The position numbers were made by a program. From Enterobacteria phage CP-1639, in the sequence record AJ304858: a DNA stretch of 50,625 nt; one strand, 5' to 3'. The first letter of the stretch is position 1; the number at the start of each line of letters is the position of its first letter. This document shows, one piece after another, positions 4,401 through 10,400 of this stretch.

Positions 4401-7400
4401 GACTATTTGAACTATTTTATAGCAAAAGAGCAAATGGACATGGGGTAGGTCTGTATCTATGTCGAGAAAACCTTGCTGTTGCACATCATAAAATATGGTA
4501 TTCAGAACCTGATGAAGGCGATAACTATTTAATAAAAGATGGCGCTAATTTTGTGATCCAGTTCAATGGAGTGGAGTTCTAATATGACAGTGGCAAATTA
4601 TAATTCTCTTGTCCAGAAAACTTTCTGCGAAAATGCAATTCGTTCCGTTGTCATGATTGATGACGATTTTCTGACGTATTCTGAATCAATCAGGGCGTTG
4701 AATAACGAAGTTGATTTAGACTACAACAAAATTGACTCATCTAAACGAGCCGCTACTCTTGAGAGCTTTTTTCAATCTAAAAATATGATTTGTGATGTTG
4801 ACAATGGTTCTGTTAATTTCGATGTGGATCGGATTAGAAAATCAGATCTTATTATTGTAGATTATCATCTTGATAATAATGCACCTGATAAAACACTTAA
4901 ACTATTACAAGATTTGAAAGACTCCGATCATTTAAATATGATTGTAATATATACTAGAGAGAATTTAGAAACGGTTTGGATGCAGATATCATCGACTCTC
5001 AAAGGTGCTCTGGATATCAACAGCTTGATCATTGACTACGATAATGAAGATGTCCAAAGTTATTGGGAAGACGTTGTATTACCGAACTTAAATGATAATG
5101 GTAATAAAGCTCTCACAAGAGATGAAACAATAGCCTATATTAAAGACAGTAAGCCTTGTAGAAGAATTAAAAGATTAATACATGATGATGCTGTGTTGGA
5201 GGATCAAAAGGATAAAAACTTCATTGCAAAAATGATTGCAGAATATGCTGTGTCTAGAAATGCAATTATTTCTAGCAACACATCTGGCAATGTCATTCGG
5301 GGTGATGAAAGCGGAGTAAAATGGATTCAATGTGGTAATATCTTTGTCTCCCTATTTCATAAGGTTCAAGATGATCATGAAAACGATGGAGATAGGATTT
5401 GGCAAACTCTCAATGATTCTCTCATTGAATGGAAACCATCTTATTATCAGTTAATAAAATCTGAAATTCAGAATGCAATCGAAGCTGAGGCTTTATCTTT
5501 TGTAAATCATTTGGCTAACGATCATTACGGTCAAGCTGCGTGGTTAAATGAGATATTAAAATCAGACTCGCCTGATATTAGATGTAGAAATATTGACTTT
5601 GTATTTGGTAATTTATCAGAAGAGCTTTATCAAAGACTTAAAAATAATAATACGCTGGATGAATTTATCAAAAGTGTTTTTGATAGCTATTCAAATGAAT
5701 ACGCTAACAGCGGAGTTGCTGCATTGCTCCAATATTGCTCTTCAAAAATGGATCTGCCATCAAATAATGATACTTATCACGAAATGTATCATGCTTTAAA
5801 TATGAATTTGTCTTCAAAGAATTTTGAAGATGGTCATATTTCTACTGGCACTATTTTCTTTGATACAGAGTCGAACAAATGGTATTTATGTGTATCTGCG
5901 GCATGTGATTTGGTTCCTACTCAGGGTAACGACCCTCACCATGTAAGATTAAGTCCGCACAGGCTCATTAAAGTTCTGGAGCTTTTTAACGCCAGTCAGA
6001 GTAAAGCATTGCCATTTGCTGAACATTCGAAATATATATATGTAATGCATAAAAATCAAAGAAAATATCTCTCTATTTTCGAAGGGGATAAAACGCTTCC
6101 TGTTGTTGATTATATGGTGGTGTTGAATCATGGAACAACAGTTGATGGCGAAGAAAAAAATATTATTTCTGCCGTGTTTTTAAGTAATATGGATGGCAAC
6201 GTGCAAAATGTTCCTGTCCGACTCAAACTTAAATCTCAACTGAGAACTGGTTATGCAGAAAGATATCAGGCTATAGCGTCTCAGTATAGCTCAAGGATTG
6301 GTGTGGATTATGTATCAATGATGCTACCATAATTATTATATTTTAGGCGTGGTGATTTTTTTTTCGCCATGCCTATTTTATATTTATCATCACAATGATG
6401 TTGTTTATTTTTGTTTAAGTCTTCTAAGCTTCATGCATTCTAATGAGAATAATAATAGAGTTGTGCTGTATATAAAGCCAGAGTTAGTTAATAACTTTAA
6501 ATTTAATGCTTCAGGATTTTCACTGAGAAAGTGAAAGGCATAAACTAAGTATACAGCTAAAGTAGCCGTTCCAATTGTTGGTCCAATATCGCCTTGATCA
6601 TGAGGTTCAAGGTTTACATTGAACTTGAAGATTAGCCATTCAAATCCCCAAGTAAAAAAAACAACTAATATCATGGCTGCGAATAATTTCGCGATGTTAT
6701 CTGCTGATGGATTCATCAGAACAGATTGTTTCTGAAAAAATTCACAAAGTGAGAGTCCGAAAAAAATAAAAAAAAGTGGTCTGGAACTAAATTTTTCAAA
6801 AACTTTGAATAGGGTTTCCATTTTCTTTACCTTCAGGATTATATTAGCTATTCTGATACTTAGGCTACCAGAGCATTTGATCTTTGAGCTTGAACGTAAT
6901 CACTCCACCATTGCATCAAACTCTGTCGCTCTATCAGATATTCTGCACGATTGTATGCTGCGATAATTTCATCTTTTTTCGAGTGGGCAAGCGCTGCCTC
7001 AAGAACTTCAGCTCTGAATTTACCAGACTCCTCTGCCGCTGTTCGTGCAATAGAACGCATACCGTGAGCTACAAGCTCGCCTCCGAACCCCATTCGGATG
7101 ATAGCTGCGTTGGCTGTTTGTTCATGCATATGATTAAGAGGCGCTTTTATGCTGGGGAAAACCCATTCTCTATGCCCACTTATTGATTTCATTAATTCAA
7201 GGATGCGCAAAGCTTCTTTACTCAAAGGAACTTTGTGAAGCTTTTTCATTTTCATGAAATCAGCAGGAATGTTCCAAATGCTGTTGGTTGTATCAATATC
7301 AGACCACCTTGCGCGAACGGCTTCACCCGGACGAACCCATGTCAACAATTGCCATTCAATTAGCATACGTGTTTCCAACCGGATTGACGCATTCGTCAAA

Positions 7401-10400
7401 GATTCCATAAACCTTGGCAATTCGCTTGGGGGAAGGGCAGGCATATTTTGCTTTTTTGGTTTACTGAATCTTTGACCAAGGTTGTCAGCCGGGTTGAACT
7501 CAATAAGTTCTTCAGTAGCTGCCCACCGGAAGATTTCATTCAGACGTGAAATGATACGGCGTAGAGTTTCCAATACGCCTCGTTGCTCAATAGGATCAAG
7601 GTGTTGTTTTAAGAGCTTAGGTCGGATCTCATTGATAGGGACATTACCCAGACCGGGAAAGACATTTCTCTCTAAGCTGCGCCAGATGTCTGCTGCATGG
7701 TCTTGTGAGATACCTGATGTCTTTACCTTCTCATCTAACCATTTCCGCGCTACGGCTTGGAGAGTGTGCTCAGTAGCACTCTTTAATGCCTTCGCCTTAT
7801 CGTTGTTATGGATTTGGGGATCAACACCATATGAACCGCCCCGGGTTTCCTGGAGACTAAACTCCCTGAGAAAGAGGTAAACAGGATGACTAAAAATACT
7901 CGTTTTTCCCCCGAAGTCCGTCAGCGGGCGATTCGTATGGTTCTGGAAAGTCAGGATGAATATGACTCACAGTGGGCGGCAATTTGTTCCATTGCCCCAA
8001 AGATTGGCTGTACGCCGGAGACTCTGCGTGTCTGGGTTCGCCAGCATGAGCGGGATACCGGGGGCGGTGATGGTGGGCTCACCAGCGCTGAACGTCAGCG
8101 TCTGAAAGAGCTGGAACGTGAAAATCGTGAACTGCGCCGCAGTAACGATATCCTTCGCCAGGCTTCCGCTTATTTTGCGAAGGCGGAGTTCGACCGCCTC
8201 TGGAAAAAATGATGCCACTGCTGGATAAGCTGCGTGAGCAGTACGGGGTCGGACCGGTATGCAGCGAACTGCATATTGCCCCGTCAACGTATTACCATTG
8301 TCAGCAACAGCGACATCATCCGGATAAACGCAGTGCCCGTGCGCAGCACGACGACTGGCTGAAGAGAGAGATACAGCGCGTATACGATGAAAATCATCAG
8401 GTGTACGGTGTGCGTAAAGTCTGGCGTCAGTTGTTACGGGAAGGAATCAGGGTGGCCAGATGTACAGTGGCACGTCTCATGGCGGTTATGGGACTTGCCG
8501 GTGTTCTCCGGGGTAAAAAGGTCCGTACGACCATCAGCCGGAAAGCCGTTGCCGCAGGCGACCGCGTAAACCGTCAGTTCGTGGCAGAACGACCTGACCA
8601 GCTGTGGGTGGCTGATTTTACTTACGTCAGCACATGGCAGGGCTTCGTCTATGTGGCGTTTATCATTGATGTGTTTGCCGGATACATCGTGGGGTGGCGG
8701 GTCTCATCGTCTATGGAAACGACATTCGTGCTGGATGCGCTGGAGCAGGCGTTGTGGGCCCGTCGTCCGTCTGGCACCATCCATCACAGCGATAAAGGCT
8801 CTCAGTATGTGTCACTGGCCTATACGGAGCGACTAAAAGAAGCCGGATTACTGGCATCAACAGGGAGTACAGGCGACTCGTATGACAACGCGATGGCTGA
8901 GAGCATCAATGGTCTTTACAAAGCGGAGGTAATACACCGTAAGAGCTGGAAAAACCGTGCAGAAGTGGAACTGGCCACACTAACGTGGGTGGACTGGTAT
9001 AACAATCGACGATTGCTGGGAAGGCTGGGCCATACTCCTCCGGCAGAAGCAGAAAAAGCTTATTATGCTTCCATCGGAAACGATGATCTGGCAGCCTGAG
9101 TTCACAGATAAAACACTCTCCAGGAAACCCGGGGCGGTTCATGAAGTAATCCCCAGCCAGGTGGTAAATCCTCAATTGAAATAATTCCCGGCTCACTAAT
9201 AAAGAATCGCCAGTCGCCCATTCCAAGAGACGGATTTTTACGAAAACGCTTTTTTCTATCTGCCAACAAGTCAGCACGAGAACATTTCGCCTCTATCAGG
9301 CATGATGCTGAATTTCTGAATCCCATAGCATCTGGCTGTTCTCCGGTACTGGTTACAGCTATAAAGCGGTCATGAAAACAAACCTTGAAACCGTTGCGCT
9401 TAAGGAACTTGTACGCAATCTGACAGAGTTCGCGGTGTGTTAACGCCATATCACTCACCTTTGATGCGAATGTCAGCGACGCGTAATGCGTGTTCTAGGT
9501 CAATCAGGTAAAGCCAACTGCCATTTTCTTTAGGTATCATGACTTGTCGCTCATCTGCATTTATCGGGTGTCCATATCGAAGGTCGTAGCGAGTCGGTAA
9601 TTGAACTTCCCGCGCTTCCAGTTCAGCAATACGCTTGCACCCATCAGAGATAACTCCCTCGTAATACTCGCGCTGCTCGTTGAGTTTTGATTTTGCTGCT
9701 TCAAGCTCAACGCGCAGCTTCCCAACCGTAAGCGCAATATCCTCGTTCTCCTGGTCGCGGCGTTTGATGTATTGCTGGTTTCTTTCCCGTTCATCCAGAA
9801 GCGCCAGCGCAACATTTGGATTAAAGGCAGCAATAAATTCAGCGTTTGCATAAGCCTGAACATCTGTTTCAACCAGGCAGTTAACATGACATTCCGCAAT
9901 CACACCACCGGGTTCTCCTTTCCATTTTTGGCAAACAAAAACTCCTGTTAAATTGCCGTGCTGGTTAACAGATGTATGCCCTACGATGTAGCTTCCTTTA
10001 GTTGCTTTCTCTGCCTTTTCACGCAGTGCCTGATAATTAATTTCGCTCACTGCTTGCCTCCTTTACGCCACATCGCATTCAGATATTTGTTTTGATTCAC
10101 TGACGGAAAAGAATTTCTCTTAAGCAATTCCTCTCTCGATGGCATTGTCTTTACGCGTTGGCGAATAATCATTTCTGCCGGAAGAATGCCGGGATTGTAT
10201 GCAAGTCCTCTCATGGTAAATTCCTCAGTCATTACTGATAGCGCCATAGCGTGAGCGGTAATTACGCAGGCGCGGGTCAATTTCAGGGAAGTGGGTATAT
10301 GTGGCTTTGCGGAATGGTCGGATTGATGTCTGGTAAATTCGCTCGCGCTCTTCTTTCTCTGCAAGCCATATACAGTGGCGAAATTCCTTTTCCTCTTTCG

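Follow-up and report, generated by a model that had tools for sequence, protein, structure and literature searches.

A genomic island at ssrA in Escherichia coli O111 with an integrase truncated at an IS629 junction and a far end probably lost earlier

The sequence record AJ304858 of Enterobacteria phage CP-1639 (50,625 nucleotides, here called the window) holds a P4-type integrase gene without its 5' end (int'), next to a small membrane-protein open reading frame (ORF) and a histidine kinase/receiver gene pair. A first-pass annotation of this DNA had proposed that these genes are the cargo end of an integrative element, and that the element was immobilised when a copy of the insertion sequence (IS) IS629 replaced the start of the integrase. 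Our analysis agreed with the truncation and with the island, but not with the part given to IS629 in the immobilisation. The far end of the island was already gone in every E. coli copy (kinase cut at about codon 385, no methylase, no ssrA repeat), and such an island very probably could not have excised even with an intact integrase. A five-step history of decay, in which first the island and then the Stx1 prophage beside it lost their ends, is in our view highly probable. It amounts to IS decay of an ordinary, lineage-specific kind, in a locus that is annotated already and for the most part described, that of the CP-1639-type Stx1 prophage at ssrA, the gene of the tmRNA.

Translation of the minus strand gave an open frame from 6860 to 7831, which ran on into the IS as far as an in-frame stop at 7967-7969. 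A domain search of the fragment found Phage_int_M (PF22022, E 1.7e-23, fragment residues 25-118) and Phage_integrase (PF00589, E 9.8e-20), and no match to Arm-DNA-bind_3 (PF13356) in it. The catalytic R...HxxR...H...Y residues could be read by eye in the translation (TWVRPGE, AHGMRSIA, LAHS...AAYNRAEY). Thus the central and catalytic domains were retained, as the first-pass annotation had said of the catalytic region, and the arm-binding domain was gone. The intact homologue (WP_001341819.1, 409 aa, locus L002 9001-10230) has all three domains, Arm-DNA-bind_3 at residues 8-95, Phage_int_M at 111-204 and Phage_integrase at 219-383. Fragment residues 2-323 aligned with its residues 88-409 at 322/322 identity, so that the earlier estimate of about 90 lost codons became exactly 87 and the loss of the N-terminal arm domain was confirmed. 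Because the arm domain lies at 8-95 in the homologue and the window copy begins at 88, int' is best classed as a pseudogene of the P4-type integrase family and not as a functional member. The earliest usable start is a TTG at 7573, and the resulting product of at most 237 aa would be predicted to be without the arm and most of the core-binding parts. In an O111 relative, RefSeq likewise lists int' as a pseudogene ('phage integrase central domain-containing protein; missing N-terminus'), with an IS1203-family transposase next to it.

Integrase homology ended at 7830, where the window reads ...CACCATA, followed directly by TGAACC, and the intact gene reads ...CACCATT. From the next base but one, the window continues with a complete IS copy (copy A, Table 1), which we call IS629/IS1203; the RefSeq label is 'IS1203 family', and IS629 and IS1203 were not told apart here. 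Its ends are TGAACCGCCCCGGG and CCCGGGGCGGTTCA with terminal inverted repeats, and an ALIL frameshift pseudoknot lies at 8167-8283 (-1 frameshift, orfA/orfB). Copy A cuts two minus-strand genes at once, the 5' end of the integrase and the 3' end of a prophage early gene related to phrog_631. Its flanks are ATA and TGA with no 3-bp target duplication, which is consistent with a deletion or recombination junction. The int'::IS629 junction was present in only 34/5426 complete E. coli genomes.

A simpler explanation would be that IS629 just inserted into the integrase, or that two IS copies caused an inversion, so that the gene was merely split and its 5' part survives elsewhere. The window does contain three IS629 copies, two of them (B and C) inverted relative to copy A, and in strain OkiPb01689 the IS beside int' is itself inverted and further prophage segments are missing. 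But the missing 5' 424 nt (codons 1-87 and upstream, L002 9972-10395) left no trace in the 50-kb window by blastn or tblastn, nor was there an intact integrase frame upstream. All three IS629 copies (3/3) were without target-site duplication, and when their flank triplets were compared as products of reciprocal IS629 recombination, no matching pairs were found. The int/xis end of the prophage is also missing, and a deletion accounts for both losses in one step. We therefore hold the split-gene explanation to be very improbable and prefer a deletion. As for copy B, its fusion to the truncated Rad52-like gene is in frame (ORF 11045-11686). The inversion and further prophage loss in OkiPb01689 show that IS-mediated erosion of the locus is still going on.

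The island was then looked for in other strains. Positions 1400-8000 of the window were 100% identical to E. coli O111:H8/NM Shiga-toxin-producing chromosomes, and RefSeq gives the order in one O111 relative as glaH (csiD), a ygaQ-type alpha-amylase pseudogene, 'ATP-binding protein', 'response regulator receiver domain', a hypothetical protein, the 'missing N-terminus' integrase, the IS1203-family transposase and then lambdoid prophage genes. The intact E. coli island has the order ssrA(tmRNA)-int-138-aa membrane ORF-receiver protein-kinase'-[IS3]-ygaQ'-glaH. An intact integrase was found beside ssrA in AR_452, H19 (O26) and ARS-C101, 165 nt downstream of the ssrA 3' end. The 3' part of the integrase was carried by 629/5426 complete genomes, and the integrase was intact, with the same set of genes at ssrA, in about 590 E. 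coli genomes.

Could the integrase and the kinase/receiver cassette be unrelated neighbours at a recombination hot spot? DNA homology with a block shared by Citrobacter, Erwinia and Serratia ran unbroken from 2747 to 6820-6828, where it stopped at the start codon of the 138-aa ORF, 38 nt short of the integrase stop. Elsewhere the cassette stands beside different integrases (32-40% identity) at tRNA-Leu, tRNA-Ser or tRNA-Arg, or has no integrase within 10 kb. Against this, Logan contig L061, from run SRR27422806 of another enterobacterium, carries a fuller version of the island at ssrA, with the same integrase (89% identical at the amino acid level) adjacent to the cassette (receiver 87% identical). 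The island DNA of L061 is 82% identical to that of E. coli and the flanking backbone about 70%, which argues that integrase and cassette moved together as one horizontally transferred island. We give the unrelated-neighbours explanation a small probability and keep to a single integrative element, as had been proposed. Since other genomes pair the cassette with other integrases or with none, it would best be seen as exchangeable cargo, with this integrase as its carrier in this lineage.

The loss of the far end was traced at the junction between kinase' and ygaQ'. In E. coli, kinase homology begins at window position 2747, which corresponds to residue 387 of the full-length kinase in locus L004 of Citrobacter amalonaticus S646 and residue 381 in L061, and the missing 5' part of the kinase was found in no E. 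coli genome. Most E. coli that carry the island have IS3 precisely at the ygaQ'/kinase junction, as gagatgTTATCT, IS3 and CGCAGGGG (e.g. L054 2659-3922), and K-12 ygaQ continues past the same point with gagatgTTATCTttact. IS3 would therefore mark a deletion of the kinase 5' end, the methylase, any distal attachment site (att) and half of ygaQ. In ARS-C101 a further leftward deletion starts from the same IS3. The O111 junction has no IS3 and reads gagatgCGCGCAGGGG. Altogether 70 genomes, O103:H2 and others included (L057-L059), have IS3-less junctions of several lengths, and two of these variants keep 1-2 terminal IS3 bases, joined at microhomologies, which suggests independent imprecise excisions of IS3. 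The opposite polarity, in which the O111 IS3-less junction is the ancestral one, was considered and rejected: the IS3-bearing strains hold 6 more ygaQ nucleotides, and two IS3-less variants retain IS3 terminal bases. IEE, a promoter of such IS excision events, has been reported in O111:H8 and O103:H2, and may possibly have had a role in the loss of IS3 here. On the ssrA side of the question, the window contained no second ssrA 3' end within 3 mismatches/25 nt or 2/15 nt, and no ssrA-derived repeat was found in the intact E. coli locus L002 or in L061, whose contig ends inside the island. The comparison of strains yielded the intact integrase beside ssrA but the distal att in none of them.

In the window, int' no longer adjoins its tmRNA target. 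As the first-pass annotation had recognised, the attachment side is now occupied by IS629 and the prophage, and ssrA lies 39 kb away behind the Stx1a prophage. The pL-side genes of the prophage (ead/Ea22, anti-RecBCD, ssb and Rad52-like) are on the minus strand and reach the IS, and its tail genes end near ssrA; its int-xis end must therefore once have faced the island integrase. N-cI-cro is replaced by a partial IS629. The uncut layout was seen in strain 2313, with island integrase, a 34-nt ssrA remnant, a DUF4760 gene, the prophage integrase and early genes in this order. The phage record phi467 has the same layout, with an Stx phage that has its own integrase besides that of the island. In strain 08_3418 (L053 9934-18430) another tandem array was observed, with a P4-like satellite (primase-helicase, Icd-like, ogr/Delta, Psu) between ssrA and the island. 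The Rfam matches within the prophage, at 17663-17861 and 22451-22660, were isrK, a C4 antisense RNA with a1/b1 targets, and STnc100 just downstream of stxB. The CP-1639 sequence of Creuzburg et al. is said to be of about the window's length.

These data also bear on the idea that there is no separate island, and that int' and the kinase/receiver pair belong to the Stx1 prophage, as its integrase in degraded form and its moron cargo. GenBank's 'Escherichia phage phi467' (L063, LN997803.1) does include int, the 138-aa ORF, the receiver gene and kinase' at its end (33002-38226), and there is a PHROG family, phrog_6556, for the 138-aa ORF. The map published for UTAK-22 has a 43.0-kb prophage bounded by 10-bp repeats, and the window has a 12-bp direct repeat ACAAATTGAAAA at 3733-3744 and 46682-46693, 42,949 bp apart. 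However, the same four genes abut ssrA without a prophage in hundreds of genomes, and also in another species, and the prophage integrase of strain 2313 and phi467 is additional to that of the island. As a candidate att, the 12-bp repeat was rejected: one copy falls within the coding sequence of kinase', and three 10-mer matches were found in the region pair searched, where chance would give about 3.7, so it is probably no att site. The prophage-cargo idea is thus already contradicted and keeps next to no probability. With a separate older island as the preferred reading, the phi467 record overruns into the ssrA island, the PHROG family of the 138-aa ORF probably stems from this overrun, and one published map has probably placed the int'-receiver-kinase' segment wrongly in the prophage.

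The history that we propose has five steps. By comparison with the other loci, a small island with a P4-type integrase first entered the 3' end of ssrA, with a restriction-modification-like cargo of a C5 DNA methylase, a paraMORC ATPase-HEF_HK fusion, a Response_reg_2 receiver and, in this sub-lineage, the small membrane protein. In the E. coli lineage, IS3 then came to lie between about codon 385 of the kinase and the truncated ygaQ; this position was seen directly, and an IS3-associated deletion probably took half of ygaQ, the methylase and the distal att together with the ATPase domain of the kinase, which left the island one-ended. Judging by the footprints, O111 and other lineages would later have lost IS3 imprecisely. 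An Stx1a lambdoid phage then entered ssrA in the O111:H8 lineage with its int end towards the island integrase, producing the tandem array still intact in strain 2313 and phi467. Finally, an IS629-bounded deletion, of which the junction is present in the window, probably joined integrase codon 88 to the middle of the prophage early gene. It would have taken away integrase codons 1-87 with the promoter, attL, int and xis of the prophage, and the former ssrA junction, and would have arisen either as an adjacent deletion from one IS or by recombination between two direct IS629 copies. As a consequence, island and Stx1 prophage would be fixed together in the chromosome, the IS629 event being added to a defect that the island already had.

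Several points weigh against this history. The order of events is inferred from present-day states and not from a dated phylogeny. The missing 261 nt of the integrase were sought in the window only, and their relocation outside it is formally conceivable. Simple microhomology joining of the IS3-bearing sequence does not yield the extra CG of the O111 footprint, which makes this footprint only plausibly an excision scar. The absence of attR in E. coli means the absence of an ssrA-like repeat, and a core of a few bases would escape recognition; the distal att of the island was seen in no sequence, as the L061 contig stops within the island. Lastly, the receiver and kinase' frames are still open in O111, so that a loss of cargo function is presumed rather than seen.

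Table 1 Features of the island, the prophage and their borders in the window
Feature	Position	Strand	Remarks
ygaQ' (alpha-amylase-family pseudogene)	1639..2740	-	5' half deleted; chromosomal backbone edge of the variable region
ygaQ'/kinase' deletion junction	2741..2746	.	O111-type footprint gagatg-CG-CGCAGGGG; other E. coli TTATCT + IS3
Kinase' (HK')	2747..4582	+	C-terminal ~611 codons of a ~990-aa paraMORC-histidine-kinase-like protein; RefSeq coding sequence 2864-4582
Receiver protein, 582 aa	4584..6332	+	Response_reg_2 (PF19192) at residues 19-175 and a conserved ~350-aa C-terminal region
138-aa ORF	6405..6821	-	WP_000448925.1; about four hydrophobic segments
int' pseudogene	6860..7830	-	Codons 88-409 of a 409-aa P4-type (Arm-DNA-bind_3 class) tyrosine integrase
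Junction base	7831	.	Single base without a match in the intact integrase or in the IS end
IS629/IS1203 copy A (IS3 family)	7832..9141	+	1310 bp; orfA 7886-8212, orfB 8209-9099
Cryptic Stx1a lambdoid prophage	9142..46841 (about)	.	Between island and ssrA; without attL, int and xis
IS629 copy B, partial	11616..12505	-	First 890 nt only, joined to truncated Rad52-like gene
stxA	21146-22093		In prophage
stxB	22103-22372		In prophage
IS629 copy C, full length	31746..33055	-	Flanks without target duplication
ssrA (tmRNA)	46842..47204	-	Target of both island and prophage; sole copy of its 3' end in the window

The membrane ORF next to the cassette had been suggested to belong to the same module, and this was true in part. 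In the four closest non-E. coli loci, whose receivers are 71-73% identical, the 138-aa ORF is present and convergent to the receiver gene, inside the shared block. Its nonsynonymous divergence (dN) was 0.13 with a saturated synonymous divergence (dS), which indicates purifying selection. The unbroken block homology and the low dN argue for a real gene that travels with the cassette in the subclade of closest relatives. L061, the closest island, has no such ORF, nor have more than 40 other, distant loci, and this absence argues that the ORF is no core component.

Compared with its relatives, the cassette itself is incomplete. Full-length kinase ORFs of about 980-1010 aa were found in 45 loci from many phyla, and only these have the N-terminal HATPase_c_3 (paraMORC) domain, which is present in L004 (7006-9999) and in L061 (991 aa, L061 5034-8009). 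Kinase' has lost this domain with about 385 codons and keeps HEF_HK and HATPase_c. A distant 'ATP-binding protein' at another locus in 212 E. coli genomes matched the paraMORC part at 71% over 227 nt (e.g. NZ_CP019778.1, NCTC86, 4947019-4947245), and may represent a second, paralogous system that is complete. The kinase/receiver pair has a C5 DNA methylase as its immediate neighbour in 40/49 loci, and L061 has such a methylase too; none was found between glaH and the integrase in the window. The HEF_HK and Response_reg_2 pair itself is present in the window and conserved across all 49 loci where the contig allows. In the C-terminal region of the receiver (5270-6332, residues ~230-582) many residues are invariant, e.g. 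C436, C441, D442 and Q552-R554; this region was confidently modelled and gave no detectable match to solved structures and no known fold. Among PADLOC models there was no match for the integrase, the membrane ORF, kinase' or the full-length kinase and receiver, and the methylase alone matched type II methyltransferase models.

As the far end is already gone in every E. coli copy, the cargo is a remnant and not an intact cassette. In the protein collection, receiver alleles ending at residue 453 (P0008) had 1605 members vs 1966 for the full-length form (P0001), and other strains have a frameshift or an IS in the receiver gene; this pattern fits relaxed selection on a remnant. Alternatively, the stump of kinase' without ATPase, receiver and membrane protein might have been retained as a rewired module, e.g. 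a constitutively signalling or abortive-infection-type unit, and in that case the IS629 deletion would have welded the module to the Stx1 prophage in O111. The open frames and the purifying selection on the membrane ORF are compatible with such a module, kept in hundreds of E. coli genomes, but the cut receiver allele comes close to the full-length one in frequency and other strains have IS insertions, so we consider it unlikely to about the same degree as the unrelated neighbours above.

If the decay history is right, the finding is one more case of IS629/IS3-driven erosion that locks mobile elements into the chromosomes of enterohaemorrhagic E. coli (EHEC), and little rides on it. The same deletion would have killed the island integrase and removed the integration and excision functions of the Stx1 prophage, which agrees with the published cryptic prophage. 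It also places the true end of the Stx1 prophage: the int'-receiver-kinase' segment belongs to an older ssrA island and not, as one database record at least has it, to the phage. Those HEF_HK/Response_reg_2 genes of E. coli that have been used as family examples are truncated remnants without methylase and ATPase domain, and therefore poor material for functional tests.

Among the closest known systems is CP-1639 itself, the cryptic Stx1 prophage reported at ssrA of O111 (Creuzburg et al. 2005, Microbiology 151:941, cited in PMC8065619 and PMC13596339). PMC13596339 describes the Stx1a prophage at this site in O111 as cryptic and like CP-1639, carrying IS629 three times and devoid of integrase and excisionase, and the window agrees in all of these. 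The present finding differs in that it concerns the integrase of the neighbouring island and not that of the prophage, and some published boundaries merge both. Bellieny-Rabelo et al. (2021, PMC8011034) connect HEF_HK/Response_reg_2 pairs with C5 methylases and paraMORC ATPases, and from these pairs the E. coli copy differs by having neither the HATPase_c_3 paraMORC domain nor the methylase; the family is absent from PADLOC 2.0 and has no experimentally known function. The IS junctions resemble the IS629/IS3-mediated deletions and IEE-promoted IS excision of EHEC (PMC9943667), with IS at deletion junctions without target duplications and, after IS3 loss in O111 and O103:H2, short, variable and partly microhomology-based footprints; the difference is that IEE involvement is only presumed here. 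Finally, the island is like the ssrA-targeting P4-like integrases of the CP4-57 IntA type and the E. coli islands at the tmRNA gene in the Arm-DNA-bind_3, Phage_int_M and Phage_integrase domains of the intact homologue, in the intact int directly downstream of the ssrA 3' end and reading away from it, and in the tandem arrays that arise once a second element enters ssrA. In one GenBank record the identical protein even has the name 'Prophage CP4-57 integrase'. The K-12 CP4-57 allele is a different one, as a megablast against K-12-type genomes matched the query in its ssrA part alone, and the island here is about 8 kb, without phage-like genes and with its distal end lost.

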